Shown piece after piece: positions 1-8,724 of a stretch of 23,481 nucleotides of DNA. The DNA comes from a virus. Below the pieces are notes generated by a model. The model had not been told where the DNA came from, ran no database searches, and was given only the letters and a program-made list of their open reading frames with translations. The translations under genes and the position numbers were made by a program. The stretch is taken from UHGV virus genome UHGV-0138297; one strand, 5' to 3'. Positions within the stretch are counted from its first letter, which is position 1. Each line of letters begins with the position of its first letter.

Positions 1-193
1 CATAGTGAAAAGTTGCGAAGGCATCGATACGATCACATTGGCTGTAATGTCTGTCATTTAATTTGCTCCAGATACAAGGAATCGCCGCAGCATGGCTACG
101 GTGAGTATTTGTTTGCTTTTTGCACTACACTTTTTGTGTAGTGCTATCTCTCAAGGCCATAGCCGCTGAGTAGCTACGGTGAATTTTGGGCAT

Positions 194-216
194 AAAAAAA
201 CCCAGCCGAAGCTGGG
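194..216 (-). terminator. Rho-independent terminator (second of a tandem pair downstream of the P63C gene)
   Basis: Plus strand has A-run 194-200, then stem cccagc (201-206), loop cgaa, stem gctggg (211-216). Read on the minus strand this is a GC hairpin followed by a U7 tract. Confidence 0.6.
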
Positions 217-266
217 TCGTTGCGTTGGTTATCTGTCAGTAGTTATGTACTGGCTGAAGGATTTGT

Positions 267-289
267 ACAAAAACCCACCTGACGGTGGG
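267..289 (-). terminator. Rho-independent terminator immediately 3' of the P63C gene
   Basis: Plus strand acaaaaa (267-273), stem cccacc (274-279), loop tgac, stem ggtggg (284-289). On the minus strand the hairpin is followed by UUUUUGU. It lies 9 nt past the stop at 298. Confidence 0.65.
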
Positions 290-297
290 TTTCATAA

Positions 298-1266
298 TTA
301 GATTTCTGGTTTCATTCTTCCAAAAACCTTTTCTATTCCTTTTTCGTATTCTTCTCTTGTCTCACTCATCGCTGCGACCCCAAGAAGCTTACCGATATGC
401 TGACGCAAAGCCTTGACACCAATTTCAGAAAGGAACAGATGCAACTTATCAGATTGTTTTCCGTTCTCGTCTCGGCTGGCTCGAATCTGTTCAAGGATTT
501 TACCTTTACTCTTTGCTAGCGGGGTGTATATCTGCATGTTGGTTAGCTGCCCAAAACGAATAGGCCGTCCTTTCTCTGGCCTATTCAGGCCGTACAGTCG
601 ATACCACTCCTCGTATAGCTCATCTGGAAATTCCTTTTCATATTGACGAGCTTCTTCACGAACAAACGCTTTGAACTCGTCAATGACAGCCTGAACTTCT
701 GGACGATAACCAGCAAGCGCATACGCAACCCCCTTAATTCCCGCCTTAGCGGAGGCATTAATAAGTCTCTGTGCTGCGGCGGCTGCCTTTAACCGTGATT
801 GTGGTAGATCGTCATTATCTTTGGCTTCTATTAGTGCCCTACCAATATCAACAATTGCTGTAATGTCATAACCTAACGCTTGATGAACGGTTTTAGACTT
901 CGAAGTAAGTTGAAATTTATAGGGATTTTCCATTTTTCGCTGCAATTCTAGATCTCGGTATTTGCTCATATACTGAGCGCCAAGTAGTTGATCTAAATCC
1001 CTGGCATGTTCACCAATCCCTAGCAACTGAGATAATCCAGTTTTCGTAACAACGACAGTTTTCGACTCGTCATCCAGTACATAACATTCAGCATCAATGC
1101 CAAAATCATCTAAAAAGTTACCACGATGAGTTGCCCTGAGAATCTTACTTTTCCATCTTGCAGCAGCTGCTTTCTTTGCTATTTCAGAACGCTGCTCTTT
1201 AGTCAGCGACTTTGCGCGAGCGATCCCGCCCTTAGCTTTCCCTTCACTACTTTTCTTTTCTGTCAT
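298..1266 (-). CDS. P63C-domain phage protein (function unknown) with a basic N-terminal segment; accessory (moron) gene
   Basis: 322-aa ORF. SD AAGGTG lies 8 nt upstream of the ATG at 1266. The N-terminal 45 residues are Lys/Arg/Ala-rich (KAKGGIARAKSLTKEQRSEIAKKAAAARWKSK). The P63C family assignment is from memory of prophage annotations, not from a search. The gene has its own promoter and terminators. Confidence 0.75.
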   Translation of the reverse strand: MTEKKSSEGKAKGGIARAKSLTKEQRSEIAKKAAAARWKSKILRATHRGNFLDDFGIDAECYVLDDESKTVVVTKTGLSQLLGIGEHARDLDQLLGAQYMSKYRDLELQRKMENPYKFQLTSKSKTVHQALGYDITAIVDIGRALIEAKDNDDLPQSRLKAAAAAQRLINASAKAGIKGVAYALAGYRPEVQAVIDEFKAFVREEARQYEKEFPDELYEEWYRLYGLNRPEKGRPIRFGQLTNMQIYTPLAKSKGKILEQIRASRDENGKQSDKLHLFLSEIGVKALRQHIGKLLGVAAMSETREEYEKGIEKVFGRMKPEI

Positions 1267-1267
1267 A

Positions 1268-1356
1268 ATGCAAGCACCTTGTTGTGATATATGCTTGCAT
1301 TATATACACTGTACACACATACAAGCAAGCATAAAACCAAAACAAAATGCTTGCAT
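1268..1356. promoter_or_regulatory. Divergent control region: two copies of a ~33-bp palindrome (ATGCAAGCA-N13/14-TGCTTGCAT) overlapping a predicted sigma70 promoter for the P63C gene
   Basis: Palindrome 1 has arms at 1268-1277 and 1291-1300; palindrome 2 at 1323-1332 and 1347-1356 (one mismatch each). On the minus strand a perfect -10 TATAAT (plus 1299-1304) sits 18 nt from -35 TTGCTT (plus 1323-1328). The -10 overlaps the right arm of palindrome 1 and the -35 overlaps the left arm of palindrome 2. Confidence 0.55.
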
Positions 1357-1421
1357 TACAACCGCGCTACTCCAACTACACATTATCATCTGGTATCCTG
1401 CACAAAACTAAGGAGGTTGGT

Positions 1422-1750
1422 GTGCTTGAATGGTTTCTGTTGGCTGCATTAGTCGTTTCTGGTTTGGTGTATGAGTATCGAATGCACTCTCTAACAAAAA
1501 AATAGGAATTCTAGAAAACGAATATTGTGCTCTCAAATCCTCACTGGAACGTGAGCAAGGGGACTTAAAAATCTCTCTGTCTAGCATTGAGCGTTCTATA
1601 GAGAGCTTAGAGGATAAGGTTGATCGTATAAAGAATGAGGATATTCATGATATTAAGGACGACATATCCTTCTTAAAATCTTGGTTGAAAAATGTTGGGA
1701 AAATTGCCACATCAACACGAGATAAGCTCAATCCATCCATGGATGACTAA
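1422..1750 (+). pseudogene. Small membrane-anchored coiled-coil protein gene, split by a -1 frame change at an A7 tract (pseudogene, or programmed frameshift/slippage)
   Basis: Strong SD AGGAGG (1411-1416) 5 nt before GTG 1422. Frame 0 encodes a 27-codon hydrophobic peptide (VLEWFLLAALVVSGLVYEYRMHSLTKK) ending at TAG 1503-1505. The -1 frame is open from 1475 to TAA 1748-1750 (about 83 codons, heptad-like, charged) and has no plausible in-frame start. The frames meet at A AAA AAA (1496-1502). The region is AT-rich. Confidence 0.55.
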
Positions 1751-3910
1751 TTACTCCTGTGCCATTCCGCTTAGCGATGCCACAATTCCAGCTCTTGCTA
1801 AACGCTGGAACTCTTCGTTTCCTAGTGCCTCGCGTATTGCTTTTACGGCGGCCTTATTTGCCATAAATCTGCGTTCCGCTGCCGCTAATGCTTCTTTGCT
1901 TCCGCCTGCTCTTACTGCTTTAGTGGCTTCCTGAACTGCTTTCTCTATCGCATACCGACCACTACGTGTGGTGGCAATTTTAGATACAGCGCCTTTTAAC
2001 CCAGCGCCAACTAAAGCACCTGCGGCAGCGCCTGCAATGCCTCCTCCAGCGCCACCAACAATGGCACCTGATGTTGAGTTGGCAATTGCATTTAACACTG
2101 TTGATGTGACGTTGGATAAACCAGCATCCAGATCGCGTAGTACATTGGCAGTTCTCCCTGTTCTTTCAATATACTGCTGAGGTTTCACTGCTGCTCTTGC
2201 AAGAGTGCCATACGCATCAGCAATTCTTCCAAGCTCTGAGGAATATCTGCTAATGGCTTTTACATTTTGTGGAGTGAGTATCTCTGCGATATGGTTAATT
2301 CCTGCTGCATCAGCTTTGCCACCACGTACACCATGCGAGATGGCATCCTGCAACATTGATGATATAGCAGGAACACGCTCTGATTCTGGCAGCGCGCGGA
2401 TCATAGAATGGAATCCAGCAGGACCATTAAGACCTTTAGCTGACGATGATTGAAGGGATTTTACTCCATTCGTAATCAGTGCATCTGTTGCCAAATCACG
2501 CCCGAAAACAGACTCTGCACTCTCTTGTGCTGATAACCTCGCTTTAGACAGATCATTAGCTTTTTGCCAGTCATCAAGAAATCCGCCGTTTTCCGCCATT
2601 GTGCGCATATCATCAGTAATTGCCCGGCGTATTTCCCCTGCTCTCCTTGCCGCATTTGCCTCTCCGCTACGCTTATATTTTTGCTCCGCATCAGCAAATT
2701 TCGCTCTCCATGCTTTCATGCCATCAAATGTTACTCCACCTTGATTGTTTGCCTGAACAAACTGTTTCATTTCAGGAGTAAGCGGTATGCCGGCAGATCG
2801 CTCTGCCTGAATAACGGCATTACCATTTAGCATTCTTGCTTTTTGATTTGGCATTGTTGACCGTACGTCATCCCATGCCGCGCGCTCGGCATCCTTCATC
2901 TGATCAAGATTTTGAAGAATCCTTTGTTTTATAGCCGCACTTTTTTCTGATGCCGTTCCAGATGCGGCCCCAAATTCATCAAGGTTTCGACTTAACTTTG
3001 ATGATATTTCGTTAAATGCTGCCTGATGGGCGTCCTGAACAATTCCTGGTGTTGATGCCAATGCGCCTTCGGCTTGTGCAATTCCACGACTTCCAGATCG
3101 CATTCCTGGTGTTAATGCGTTTATATCAATTCCAGCAGACTCAGCCGCTTTTGCTACATCTTCGGACACATTAGCGGCCTGACTGGCAATTGACTGACGC
3201 CCAGCACCTGACTTTGCCATCCTGGAAACATCATTAGCAGAATTCAGTGCTGCACCACCAAGAGCCTGTGAAACCCTTGGCGCAATAACGCGCCCGACAC
3301 CTGAAAGAACGCCTTGAGCACCAATATTGATACCACCGTTAATGGCAGCATTTTGTGCAAAGTCGCCCTCCTGATTTGCAGCATCAGCAAGAGAACCTGC
3401 AATCATGTTTCCTGCGGAACCGATATCTCCAGCGAGCTTTGCTGTCGCTCCAGCAGCTTTTGCCGCTGTGCCAATTGGCAGGAGATACCCACCAAATGTT
3501 TCACCGGCTTGCGCCCAACGGTCTGTCGGTCGATCGACAGGGCGATAAACATCATCCAAAACCTTGGGGCCACCAAGCCCATGGCTGATTGCATTAATCA
3601 GACTTGCGCCACCCTGCAATACGTCAAATGGTATGTTTACCAGACCACGACCAGCCTGTTCTGCAATTTGCCCTGCACTTTGACCACCTGTGAGCCAATC
3701 GCCAGCTTGTTGCATCAATGATGGTTCTTCTTTCTGCTGCTGATGCGGAGGGTATGCTGCATAAAACTGATCTCTTGCTTCAGCCCATTTGTCACCAGCC
3801 TTAGGGGCAACAACCTCATCAAAATATTGCGCTTGAGCCTGTGCTTTCTGTTCTTCAGTTAACGCCTGATACTGTGGAGAGGCGATAACATCTTTCCATG
3901 CTTTAGCCAT
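1751..3910 (-). CDS. Ejection (DNA-transfer) protein, P22 gp16-like
   Basis: 719-aa ORF in the P22 gene order 14-7-20-16, last of the ejection-protein trio. It has Gly/Ala-rich tracts. Its start overlaps the gp20-like stop. Confidence 0.85.
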
Positions 3911-5298
3911 TAATCACCCCATAGTGAAGAAAAGTTACTGCTGGCTGCTGGCTGTGATACCTGTGCAGGTTGAGATTGCTGCCGCTGAGATTTACCAACA
4001 TTAACGTTATATTGTTGGTTGTAATTGTTGGTGTATTCCTGAATCTCACGAATCGACTGCTGCATAGCCTCCGGGCTTGAATAGTCAACCTGCGGCATCC
4101 CCTGAAAATACATCTTCGCTTCTGCAACGGTGTTAATACCACTGGCACCCATGTCCCTTGCTGCCGCCACACCCTGTTTCTGCATTCTGCCCTGAATACG
4201 TTGTGCTGAGTTATATAACTGGCGCTGCTCTTTTCCCGTTAATCGGCTGCGAACATCAGCACCAATTGCTGGATTACCTGCACCGCCTGTCATTCCTGTC
4301 ATGAAATCGAGAGCAGAAGCGTCTGCATTTGCGATCGCGTCGATATCCTTCTTCATGGCATAGTTTTGTGCTGATGCAGACGATGTTGCCGGCGCAGCGA
4401 TTGAACTGGCAGGAACGCGAACCATATTCCCCTCGTTGTCGATGCCTTCGTAGAACGCATTAGCCCCAGCGCCGTGAAGTTTCCCTCCTACCGTTACAGT
4501 TCTGCCATCTGATAACTGAACTGTACGCTCATCATTCCCAGCGGTTCCTCTTGTTGACGCTCGCTGCATTGCCAAATCCTGCCCGCGTCGCGCAGTAGAA
4601 GCAGATAAGTCCTGACCGCGCATCGTGATGTTCTGACCTCGTGCTGTTAGCGCCTCTCCAGCCTGATTGCTGCGGATTGTCTCTGCCAGCCTGCCTCGGT
4701 CAATTTCACGACCAGCCATCTTGTCCTGAACATTGAAGTAATCAATCGGACCAAGAGCAGCCATCCCAAGGTGATCAACAAACTCACCAAATCCTGAAGG
4801 ATTCTGCTGATACATCTGAGCAACGCTGTTAGGGTCAACACCGACGCGAGTCAGTTCCTTGGCGTTGTTTTGCAGCCATGATTGCATTGCTTCTGGAGAC
4901 GATGACGCAAGGCGTGCGCCAGCCGCTAAGGTGCCGATAGAATTACGCTGGTCTTCATCAATGAATCCCATGCCTTTACGAACGGATTCAATCTGGTCTG
5001 GATATTGAGTAGCCAACTGACGCAAAGCACCGCGATCACCAGACGCATAAGCATTAGCGTACGCCTGCTGAAATTCTTTCTGCCGCTGAGCCTGCTTCTC
5101 CTGCTGAAACACCCCCGCAATACCTGAAAGGCCTTGCAAAGCAGTCAGCCCAACATTGTTAGCGCCTGAACGCTCAATATCATTGTTCTGCCTGATAAGC
5201 TGAAGCGTATTGCCGATGTCATTTACGCTCGGAGCGTTTGAGTTGACGCCGCCGATACCAGCCAACAATCCGCCATTTGATCCTTGCCAAGTAGCCAT
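3910..5298 (-). CDS. Ejection protein, P22 gp20-like
   Basis: 462 aa (P22 gp20 is about 471 aa). Position between the gp7-like and gp16-like genes. Gln/Ala-rich low-complexity sequence typical of ejection proteins. Confidence 0.85.
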
Positions 5299-5307
5299 GA
5301 TTACCCC

Positions 5308-6000
5308 TTAAAACAACGAGCCAAGCAATCCGATACCAGCACCAATGCCAGCGCCCCAAGGTGTTGATGTTCCCAAAAGGCTGGCAAGACCTGCACCGGC
5401 AATCGCACCAGACGTGCCACCGCTAATTGCAGTCTGAAGACTTGATGGTTTATTGGCATTAGCAGCGGCAAGAGCTGCGCTTTGCTGTGCAATGCTGCTC
5501 ATGTTGTTGGCGTACGTCTGCCCGGCGTTTGCCTGACCTTGCAGAGCACCAAGCCCAACGTTTGCCAGATTGTTGTAATTGCTCATCTGGTTTGATAACC
5601 AAGACTGACCGAGAGTCGGCGCGATCGTAGCCAGTTGATTGCTTGTGGCTGTCGAACCAAGTCCTCCCGTAGCCTCCGCAGCAGCAAGACTCTGGTAACG
5701 AGCCTGACCTGCAAGGTCTTTATACTGCTGAGAGTTGTAATACTGATTAAGTGCCTGCCCCTGACCTTCCAAACTGGAAAGGTTCTGAAGCTGGTTAACA
5801 TACTGCTCCGCAAGAGGCGTGAACGGAGCAAGGTTTTTCATGATCGTCTGCCACTGCTGATTTTGCAGGTCTGCGGCATACTTCTGAGCTTCTGCGGCAT
5901 ACTTTGCACTTTTATCAGAACTGCCACCTTTCCCGCCTTTTTCATGGCAATAAGGTTCCTCGCCGCGCAGTTTTCTGCCCAGCTTAAATGCATATAACAT
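5308..6000 (-). CDS. Ejection protein, P22 gp7-like
   Basis: 230 aa (P22 gp7 is 229 aa). N-terminus MLYAFKLGRKLRGEEP... and Gly-rich C-terminus. Synteny. Confidence 0.85.
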   Translation of the reverse strand: MLYAFKLGRKLRGEEPYCHEKGGKGGSSDKSAKYAAEAQKYAADLQNQQWQTIMKNLAPFTPLAEQYVNQLQNLSSLEGQGQALNQYYNSQQYKDLAGQARYQSLAAAEATGGLGSTATSNQLATIAPTLGQSWLSNQMSNYNNLANVGLGALQGQANAGQTYANNMSSIAQQSAALAAANANKPSSLQTAISGGTSGAIAGAGLASLLGTSTPWGAGIGAGIGLLGSLF

Positions 6001-6002
6001 GG

Positions 6003-6458
6003 CTATCTCCCGTGATTCAGGAAGTCGATTAGTTCTTCGCGTGTGGCGCTGTAAAACGTCACGTCATCCACGCCTTTGAAGTATTTCTTGATGGTTCCGA
6101 CACGCTTAAGGCCAATCATTGCGCAGTAAATCTGCCCGTGGCGGAATTTGCGTGCGGCGAACGATGTGACGCACTGAACGGTGGTGTTAGTCAGAATGTA
6201 TCGCCAGAACGCCAGCCCGATTTCCTTGCTGAAGCCGCGAATCTCTGGCAGGTACATGGCGTGGCAATCGAATGTCAGCGGCTGAATCTCCTGATAGTAA
6301 ACAATGCCGCCGAACTGCCCGTGCACGTTCACCTCAAAGTAACGGCAATCAGGTTTGTAGTCGTATCCATCACCGTTGTTGCTTCCGGCAATAATGTCAG
6401 GGTGATTTCCGACTGCTTCGATCAGGTCGATGTTTCGCGTTGGTTTGAACTGAATCAT
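6003..6458 (-). CDS. P22 gp14-like head/ejection accessory protein
   Basis: 151-aa ORF between the tail needle and the gp7-like gene. Its start overlaps the needle stop (TAATG). Confidence 0.75.
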   Translation of the reverse strand: MIQFKPTRNIDLIEAVGNHPDIIAGSNNGDGYDYKPDCRYFEVNVHGQFGGIVYYQEIQPLTFDCHAMYLPEIRGFSKEIGLAFWRYILTNTTVQCVTSFAARKFRHGQIYCAMIGLKRVGTIKKYFKGVDDVTFYSATREELIDFLNHGR

Positions 6459-7306
6459 TACTGCTCCGCGATTATCTTGATGGTTGTGGCAGTAAACGCC
6501 GCACCATTAGACTGAATGGTTAACGTGCTGCCATTTGTGGCAAGAAAGCCGTCTTTATCCACGCTGAAGAACGTAGCTAACAGGATGTTATCGGTTGTTG
6601 TCGCCGAGTTGCGACTGCTTACCAGAGTGTCAGGAACAGAGCCGGAAAAGGTTAGCTGCATTGACCTGTTGGAGGTTCCGCTGGGCCACGTCCCGACGAT
6701 CGACAGCTTGAATAACAGGGTTTTGTTCTCGTTGAACACAACCATCTTGTTGTTAACGGTGTCGAAGAATGGTGCCAACGAGCCGGATGACGGCGTGAGC
6801 GTTTTCAGCAGGCTAACAAGGTTGGTCGGCGCTGTCGGAATGGTTACAGATACGCCAGAGTAAACAACCTCTGACTTTTTTCGAGTAGTGGCATACTCCA
6901 GAGCATCAATGCGCGTTTCATGGTCTGAAAGCGTGTTTTGAATGGCGACAACTTCATCAGTCAGATAATCAATATCGTTTTCTGCTGTCGTTAATCGCGA
7001 ATCAAGGCCGACTATCGCCGCTTCTGCGTTAGTGATCCTTGTTTCGTGGTCCTGAATCTTCGCTTCAGCTGATGCCAGTCGAATTTCGTGATCGACCAGA
7101 ATCACATCCTGCGCATCGTTCCTGACTTGTGCGTCATAAGCGCCCTGCCCTGCTTCATTGGCCTTGTTCGCCACGTTACCAACATCTGTACCTTGCGCGA
7201 TAACGTAAAGCAGATACGACTGCGAGAAGATATTGCGTGGAAGGACTGATGTATCGAGCCGCGTAGCCTGGATGATTACCGGCTCATTGAGATTCGAATC
7301 AGCCAT
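6458..7306 (-). CDS. Tail needle (P22 gp26-like) with an extended C-terminal domain
   Basis: The true start is the internal Met ([43 protein letters not shown]...), which closely matches the P22 gp26 N-terminus as I recall it. That ATG (7306-7304) overlaps the gp10 stop (TAATG). The product is 282 aa against 233 aa for P22 gp26, with a Ser/Thr-rich C-terminal part. The ORF-track start at 7408 is an upstream extension. Confidence 0.88.
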
Positions 7307-8724
7307 TACTCGATCCTTATCTGGCAACCAGACAGAGTGACAGGTGACTTCGTGATAACGCGCAATTTGAAGCCAATGTTTTTCCTGATGCGCCCTACTT
7401 TCTTCCACAAAACGCGTTTGTCGTAAACGAACGGTTCATTCTGCTCAATCATCTGCTCACGCCCGTAATTGATGCCGTCAGTGGTTGCAGAGAGGAACAG
7501 GCGGTCGGCGTACTGCGCAACGCCAGTTGACGATTCAACCTCAAGGTCGAAAACTCTGGCGTTATCCGCTTTGAACAACGGAGTAAACAGCAGGTGTTCC
7601 TGTTGCTTGTCGTACTGGCTGCTGATGTCGAATTGCAGTTTCCCGGTAACAGATTCCAGCTTATCGCCGCACGTTATCTGATTGCCTTCGTAAATGAAGT
7701 CGATAGCGCGGTACACATCGTCATACAGGCCTGTTTTCAACACACACCATTGCGGACCATTGGCGCTTGAAGATGCGTCGTAAACAAGAACATGGCGCGG
7801 AAGGTGGATAATCAGCAATTCATGAGCATCAAACCGCAACGATTCCATCACGCCATCAGCCAGTTCATCAGCAGTGTAGGAGCGTAGTATTTTCTCAATG
7901 CTCGCGCTGGCGATTGGTGACACCTGACCGGAGCCGATGATGTATACAGACGGCGCACCTGTTGCCGGATTGCTGATGAACGCATACGAATCAGCAAACG
8001 GCGTTTTGCAGTAAGTCCCGGCGATTCCTTTTTGCACCATCAACGATGGCTGGGCGACATACAAAGCGGCACCAACAGTGGTTGCGCCCGTCAGGGAGAA
8101 ATATTCAATCGTCGATGAGCCAAAGCAGACGATGAAGTCTCGCCATGTTCCGATGCCGATGATGCCGTCAGGCTGCGACTCGGCACGATATTGTGCGCTG
8201 TAGCGGTCAGGATGCGATTCGTCTTCAGGGTCAGTGATAAACCATGAATCTGTGCCGTCTTTTGACCACGCATAACGCCCACGTAAGCGCGTAATGTCGC
8301 GGACTGAGCCTAACTCATACTGAGTAAAACCGCTGTCTGTAGGCCAGTTTGAGACGGTTTTAACCGTGCCGTCATAACGATACTCGACCAGTTGACCATT
8401 AACGCCTACCGCCTGTGATGTCCGACCATGCGCCATTGATACACGACCACTTCCGGCGACGTCACCGACTTCACTTTCGCCTTTGTACAGCTTGCCACCA
8501 CACACACGATAAACAGCATTCTGCGCCATGTTGTACTCAACTCCGCGCGATACGCCGTTCACATCAGAACGTTTGGCAATGCCCGGGAATGAGCGAAGAT
8601 ATCCGCTGCTGTTCAGGATTTCTTTGGGTGTAGCCAACATATTCACTGGCAGATAGTCGATATAGTCGGCGTTTCTAAAGTCTTTGCCGACACCTTTCAT
8701 AAGCGGAAGTTGCTGAATCGGCAT
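7306..8724 (-). CDS. Tail accessory factor, P22 gp10-like
   Basis: 472 aa, the same length as P22 gp10. Synteny gp4-gp10-gp26. Confidence 0.88.

Follow-up and report, generated by a model that had tools for sequence, protein, structure and literature searches.

An hkcB gene split at an A-run in a P22-like Escherichia coli prophage lineage: a probable recent one-base deletion resembling a shifty stop

The heptamer A_AAA_AAA is in use by some IS3-family elements (PMC4066793), and its capacity for -1 frameshifting has been measured in an E. coli reporter. Unstimulated AAAAAAA gave 0.405 ± 0.021% frameshifting, a value that the IS911 stimulators raised to 0.82% and the IS3 pseudoknot to 24.8% (PMC4066793, Suppl. 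Table S3). A stop codon adjacent to such a site may raise shifting somewhat, according to the part of PMC5009743 that cites Weiss et al. 1987 on 'shifty stops'. AAAAAAA is also strongly under-represented in E. coli genes (PMC4066793), and mononucleotide runs are indel hot spots in this species (PMC8510543). The gene concerned here is best described in phage HK620, where it is annotated as a single gene, hkcB (HK620p55, NP_112088), of 109 aa. The Salmonella phages SEN22 (SEN22_15) and epsilon34 (gene 14) encode a 107-aa homologue at the same location. A literature search on hkcB returned the epsilon34 genome paper alone, in which the homologue is noted with function unknown (PMC2629481), and no functional study was found. 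The superinfection-exclusion locus of P22 is the other system close to this one; SieA proteins have about 160-200 aa, at least three transmembrane helices and a C-terminal FxRYPxEAxxFNK motif (PMC10883804).

The sequence analysed in this study, referred to as the window, is a 23,481-nucleotide stretch of viral DNA (UHGV-0138297). An original prediction, made from the letters alone, had described a shifty-stop configuration at 1422-1750, in which the A-run and the TAG behind it would serve as a recoding site within a small membrane protein gene. Our analysis makes it highly probable that the A8→A7 change in hkcB is an ordinary recent one-base deletion in one E. coli prophage lineage, and not a programmed signal.

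Identity and genomic setting of hkcB

The window covers the late region of a P22-like phage (Lederbergvirus), with gene 20 at 3910-5298 followed by gene 7 and the needle, gp10, gp4, coat, scaffold, portal and terminase genes, all of which have the lengths of their RefSeq counterparts. The Shine-Dalgarno sequence AAGGAGG at 1410-1416 is spaced by 5 nt from GTG 1422, and frame 0 from this start reads VLEWFLLAALVVSGLVYEYRMHSLTKK and stops at TAG 1503-1505, the codons at the tract being ACA AAA AAA TAG. All of the sequence statements of the original prediction hold at this point, namely the strong Shine-Dalgarno, the GTG start and the stop directly after seven As, and so does its remark that the -1 frame stays open for an unusual length of about 83 codons. 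No stop interrupts this frame from 1475 until TAA 1748-1750; its translation, ...KKIGILENEYCALKSSLEREQ...NPSMDD*, includes the residues NKKIGILENEY, and the earliest ATG, GTG or TTG in it is TTG 1685. At 38% GC, 83 stop-free codons would arise by chance with p ~0.002; the other two frames contain 8 and 10 stops over 1503-1750. Comparison of the 82 C-terminal codons between two allele types gave 29, 14 and 42 differences at codon positions 1, 2 and 3, respectively, a pattern that indicates a translated and constrained frame. This openness beyond chance has a simple reason: the -1 frame is the one in which a known gene, hkcB, is really encoded.

Over this region, DNA identity is 98.9% with HK620 and 98.6% with Escherichia phage vB_EcoP-611R6. 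The two open reading frames had been proposed to be parts of one split gene with a fusion product of about 110 aa, and the joined product indeed equals the 109-aa HkcB. Repaired HkcB matched phrog_5962 (PHROG 5962, 'unknown function') over positions 2-109 of 109 with E = 1.9e-61, and both the full-length similarity and the conserved position beside gene 16 place it in the HkcB family. Like the window, HK620 hkcB is convergent with gene 16 and abuts it, and it has the same Shine-Dalgarno and GTG start. It differs from the window in carrying A8, not A7, and the window copy is interrupted after codon 27. Judged by sequence, window 1422-1750 is hkcB, a gene of P22-like phages, split at the A-run.

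The Pfam search of HkcB returned no family, with coiled-coil matches below threshold only, and the PADLOC search returned one weak DpdH match in which no domain passed and which is therefore not credible. A structure was modelled by AlphaFold for a 99%-identical database homologue (P0003), supplied with 11 homologues and used in place of the repaired window sequence; the model is one continuous helix over residues 2-103 with a mean pLDDT of 86. HkcB is predicted to have a membrane anchor at the N-terminus that continues as a long helical stalk. The features of the locus are collected in Table 1.

Table 1. Features at and around hkcB in the window
Feature	Position	Strand	Remarks
P63C-domain protein gene	298..1266	-	PF10546, E = 6.8e-14; phrog_2384; divergent from hkcB
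Repeated TAATGCAAGCA / TGCTTGCATTA half-palindromes	1265..1358	.	divergent promoter region; candidate operators
5' leader, Shine-Dalgarno and GTG start of hkcB	1391..1424	+	34 nt identical to P22 sieA leader/start (many P22 records, 100%)
Truncated 5' part of hkcB	1422..1505	+	27 codons (transmembrane helix) and premature TAG; aligns to HK620 HkcB codons 1-27
A7 tract, frameshift mutation site	1496..1502	+	A8 minus one base, compared with relatives
3' part of hkcB, codons 28-109 (helical stalk)	1502..1750	+	now in -1 frame relative to start
Gene 16 (DNA transfer/ejection protein)	1751..3910	-	PF26808 Phage_P22_gp16; convergent with hkcB, no spacer

In P22, the end of the annotated PsieA promoter is the exact beginning of the 34-nt match, and in the alignment the start codon of sieA falls on window 1422. 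This identity of leader, Shine-Dalgarno and start confirms GTG 1422 as the start of hkcB. By its position, hkcB occupies the P22 sieA slot, between the ejection gene 16 and the immI/tailspike region. P22 sieA resembles hkcB in this slot next to gene 16, in its prophage-type orientation and in the 34-nt leader, whereas the proteins are different: P22 SieA has 162-164 aa, three predicted transmembrane helices and the FxRYPxEAxxFNK motif (PMC10883804), and HkcB has 109 aa and one transmembrane helix continued by a long helix, with the motif absent. HkcB was considered as a SieA homologue, and this was ruled out by its length, its single continuous helix and the absent motif; it shares with SieA the locus and the leader only. 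The two genes seem to be alternative cassettes placed on the same expression signals beside gene 16, and their coding sequences are unrelated.

Several other observations were made around the gene. The 12-nt half-palindrome TAATGCAAGCA / TGCTTGCATTA is present as exact direct copies at 1291-1302 and 1347-1358, with inverted partners at 1265-1276 and 1325-1333. These half-palindromes look like operator sites, and are candidates for the binding of a dimeric regulator of both divergent promoters. The P63C protein has 322 aa with the domain at its C-terminus, belongs to a phrog of unknown function, and occurs unchanged in records of E. coli, Salmonella and Klebsiella aerogenes; its gene replaces hkcC or the SEN22/epsilon34 genes at the same position. 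At the other end, the stop codons of hkcB and gene 16 abut (TAA 1748-1750 and TTA 1751-1753), and the last ~55 nt of hkcB, within window 1694-1760, are invariant in DNA across allele types that are only ~50% identical in protein. A mosaic recombination junction, common to this invariant 3' end and the end of gene 16, is the probable explanation.

The A-run among relatives and the inheritance of A7

In the alignment, HK620 and 611R6 carry A8, and the gene is read through it in a single frame, ACA AAA AAA ATA GGA (T K K I G). The SEN22 and epsilon34 alleles have AAGCAAAAGATA and AAACAAAAGATA at these codons, which encode K Q K I with no long A-run. Type B alleles, 50% identical, encode KQK by AAACAAAAG, also with no A-run, and a third allele type (67% identical), seen at the protein level only, has TQK at the tract codons, so its DNA cannot hold A8. 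Counting the As in related prophages had been suggested as a check on the original prediction. The count gave A8 in the type A relatives and no run of this length in the divergent alleles, and the in-frame partner of A7 is A8, not the A6 or A9 that had been named.

The same result was obtained in larger collections. The 72 loci with an invariant hkcB 3' end were compared after copies cut by the locus end had been left out; they fall into two allele types, A with the A8 run and B with no run, and every complete copy is intact, the window's own contig excepted. The 70-mer with A7 had an exact match in 0 of 82 complete E. coli genomes. With this probe alone, A8 is indistinguishable from A7 plus one SNP, and the reverse probe, a 71-mer with A8, was therefore used; it matched exactly in 61 of 79 complete E. 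coli genomes, with ordinary CDS annotation throughout, and the genomes with a non-exact match had, among the matches listed, the same length and one mismatch. Full-gene matches in complete E. coli genomes were one base longer than the window in all cases (60/60 among the matches listed). Among IMG/VR viral contigs, the 31 others were all A8 and the single A7 was the window's own contig (L036), whose sequence from position 1687 on is exactly that of the window from position 1; metagenome contigs showed A8 in 10 of 10. The scan of species-representative genomes (one genome per species) for the tract pattern gave no match. On these comparisons the window tract is the ancestral A8 minus one base.

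The window comes from a metagenome-assembled contig (IMGVR_UViG_3300029162_000071), and no homopolymer in it would be longer than the ancestral A8. An error of sequencing or assembly in a phage that really has A8, which the original prediction had listed as an alternative, was weighed against the recurrence of the allele. The truncated 52-aa product (ATG 1347 to TAG 1505) was searched for by exact look-up and was found on contigs from independent runs, namely the Logan runs ERR10376750, ERR10376537, SRR6256381, SRR22865514, SRR22865522 and SRR4408126 and the ENA assemblies ERZ28665555 and ERZ28521452. All of these contigs have seven As and match the window at 99.97-100% identity over stretches of up to 4.5 kb. 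Metagenome assemblies made independently of each other in several projects, at least 9 of them, have the A7 allele, as have E. coli isolate genomes at NCBI, always on a near-identical background, whereas other backgrounds read by the same sequencing technologies give A8. The window has 21 homopolymer runs of at least 6 bases, and where relatives were comparable only the hkcB run differs in length, the other 20 being in agreement. An error at the homopolymer is scarcely credible in view of these results. The original prediction had coupled an in-frame tract in the homologues with a simple error in this isolate; the in-frame tract was found, as A8, and the simple error did not stand, A7 recurring independently.

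The proteins of window genes 16 and 20 have exact copies in NCBI E. coli isolate assemblies. One isolate, GCA_014748065.1, is 100% identical to window 1-7910 on a 233-kb contig and carries A7, as do 20 similar places. Another isolate, GCA_017757765.1, contains a sister prophage (L086) in which hkcB is intact, with A8 and 109 aa; the only differences of this prophage from window 1-5301 (5.3 kb) are the added A and a single SNP at 3951. A7 was present in ~22 of 24 contigs with the identical gene-16 protein. A search of the window for other broken genes found none, and its structural genes are of normal length. Judging from these genomes, and from the near-identity of the sister A8 prophage in particular, the A7 form is a real allele of an E. 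coli prophage, clonally inherited and derived very recently from an intact A8 parent. Intact relatives, a single-base change in a run and inheritance by descent, the marks of a homopolymer-indel pseudogene, were all found. The real inactivating indel, which had been kept as a fallback in the original prediction, is thus the part of it that agrees with A8 in the intact relatives and with the clonal inheritance of A7. Within the A7 clone, one contig (L088) has a G→T change at window 1612, which would be Glu→Asp in the untranslated stalk; it is a single event.

Slippage at the A7 run and the case for recoding

The run A AAA AAA has the form X XXY YYZ of a slippery heptamer in frame-0 phase, the frame-0 stop lies immediately 3' of it, and a ribosome slipping to -1 on it, or a transcript with one A more, would give exactly the wild-type 109-aa HkcB. 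These features, together with the use of A_AAA_AAA in IS3-family elements (PMC4066793), are what could be expected if the lineage deliberately made both the 27-aa peptide and full-length HkcB by programmed -1 frameshifting or transcriptional slippage. The distribution of the arrangement argues against such programming. A two-frame organisation is not conserved among the homologues: a single clone, whose members lie 0-2 SNPs from the window, has the split, an intact A8 parent differs from this clone by one SNP in 5.3 kb, and all the other complete copies examined are uninterrupted.

The surroundings of the tract also lack the usual helpers, a hairpin or pseudoknot about 5-9 nt downstream or an SD-like sequence upstream, although a stimulator of an unusual kind is possible. 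The fold of 1503-1580 (78 nt) has -13.2 kcal/mol against -12.45 ± 2.59 for shuffles (z = -0.29), which gives no downstream structure, and the 20 nt before the tract contain no GG and thus no SD-like stimulator. A long conserved A/T run for transcriptional slippage is absent as well, the window having A7, relatives an in-frame A8 and divergent alleles no run. Runs of about 9 or more are typical of programmed transcriptional slippage (Baranov 2005, cited in PMC4066793), and A7 is shorter. With an unstimulated efficiency of only ~0.4% (PMC4066793), a programmed signal of either kind is very unlikely here, and the shifty-stop recoding site of the original prediction is not upheld: the split is not conserved, divergent alleles have no run and no stimulator was found.

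The deletion, on the other hand, would account for the whole arrangement in a few steps. The A8 run in the prophage accessory gene hkcB has lost one base to become A7, which places TAG directly after codon 27, so that translation would yield mainly a membrane-anchor peptide of 27 aa and would no longer reach the helical stalk of 82 codons. This A7 allele has been passed on clonally in one E. coli prophage lineage. A slippery tract followed by a stop would still allow ~0.4% of ribosomes, perhaps somewhat more beside the stop, or slipped transcripts to yield wild-type HkcB. The leak from the A7 allele is expected to be ~1% or less, so that only trace wild-type HkcB would be made. Such rescue by slippage is an adventitious leak, whose size we infer, and not an evolved recoding device. 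From its sequence, hkcB in the A7 lineage would be a pseudogene or a severe hypomorph.

Length variants of the tract, loss of HkcB and known systems

Tract lengths other than A8 are found outside the window lineage too. A6 is present in one sequence (L084, ERR10498788), a second A7 background (L082, SRR16764780) is 98.6% identical to the window, and A10, which has the same frame as A7, occurs together with a further 3-nt deletion (L085, ERR4656897); each of them is a single short contig. These A6, A10 and second A7 variants indicate that the A-tract is a mutational hot spot of hkcB. They also bear on the idea that hkcB is a phase-variable contingency gene, in which the A8 would be a slipped-strand switch for HkcB in lysogens and the window its OFF state. 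Codons 25-27, where the tract is located, come early in the gene and any change of length there aborts the protein, A6, A7 and A10 occur in different backgrounds beside the window lineage, an A8/A7 pair stands one SNP apart, and runs are indel-prone in E. coli (PMC8510543) with AAAAAAA avoided in genes (PMC4066793). However, more than 95% of the copies carry A8. The A7 clone, for its part, keeps its state, none of ~30 near-identical contigs having A8, and the A6, second A7 and A10 variants, being single contigs from short, low-coverage assemblies, could be errors. The A8 run in mismatch-repair-proficient E. coli is, moreover, far less mutable than classical contingency tracts. The tract is not kept by selection across divergent alleles either; type B and the 67%-identical type do the same job with no A8. 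Phase variation is therefore unlikely.

A second disrupted hkcB allele (...EREQAAR*) was seen in ~29 contigs, including NCBI E. coli (L090 3001-3225 and L091 2888-3112). In L090, a deletion joins hkcB at codon ~46 to early-region and integrase genes, and the degraded prophage is without the whole virion module. Two 106-aa proteins (P0014 and P0016, MVSVGC...) were examined as possible alleles in which TGA 1472 had become TGG, opening the -1 frame from ATG 1430. This reading was rejected because the DNA of L082, L083 and L085 still has TGA, the 'W' coming from gene calls with TGA=Trp. The 106-aa MVSVGC...W... proteins in the public collection show that TGA=Trp calls on short contigs can mimic compensated frameshift alleles. 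We take the hkcB variants for signs that a dispensable accessory gene decays now and then, and see classical phase variation as a weak possibility.

The A7 lineage is widespread, and the loss of HkcB must therefore be at least tolerated. It is possible that the loss has a selective benefit, or that the low-level leak is useful. A stronger form of this idea holds that A8 is a low-frequency ON/OFF switch of a membrane protein in the sieA slot, that A7 has spread by advantage and that the ~0.4% leak keeps a trace of the product; we regard it as improbable. If true, the switch with its advantageous OFF allele would be a prophage counterpart of the 'savior indel' of herpesvirus TK, and HkcB would possibly be an exclusion or injection-related factor. 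Under the preferred reading, a recent deletion in one lineage, hkcB would be dispensable for prophage persistence in a widely sampled E. coli clone, and 1422-1750 is best annotated as a frameshifted hkcB pseudogene, neither as two genes nor as a recoded gene. The natural A7 and A8 sister prophages make a near-isogenic pair for testing the role of HkcB. The locus is also a caution, as a slippery heptamer followed by a stop and a long open -1 frame mimics a recoding signal when it is read in isolation.

The mechanism, a homopolymer frameshift, is already known, and nothing in it is new. Compared with the sites of IS3/IS1-family elements and dnaX (A AAA AAG / A AAA AAA), the window has a slippery heptamer that is likewise of this type and correctly phased. 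Those sites, unlike the window, are conserved across divergent members and mostly come with stimulators, and the upstream SD, hairpin or pseudoknot at sites of this type lifts AAAAAAA from 0.4% to 0.8-25%. The 'savior' and problem indels in the G-run of the herpes simplex thymidine kinase, where frameshifting compensates at a low level, are the closest parallel so far described (PMC5009743). There, unlike in hkcB, the importance of the trace product and the selection of the indel have both been demonstrated experimentally. The two genes are alike in that inactivation goes back to a homopolymer indel of one base, and slippage on the same run can still yield a trace of full-length product (PMC5009743).
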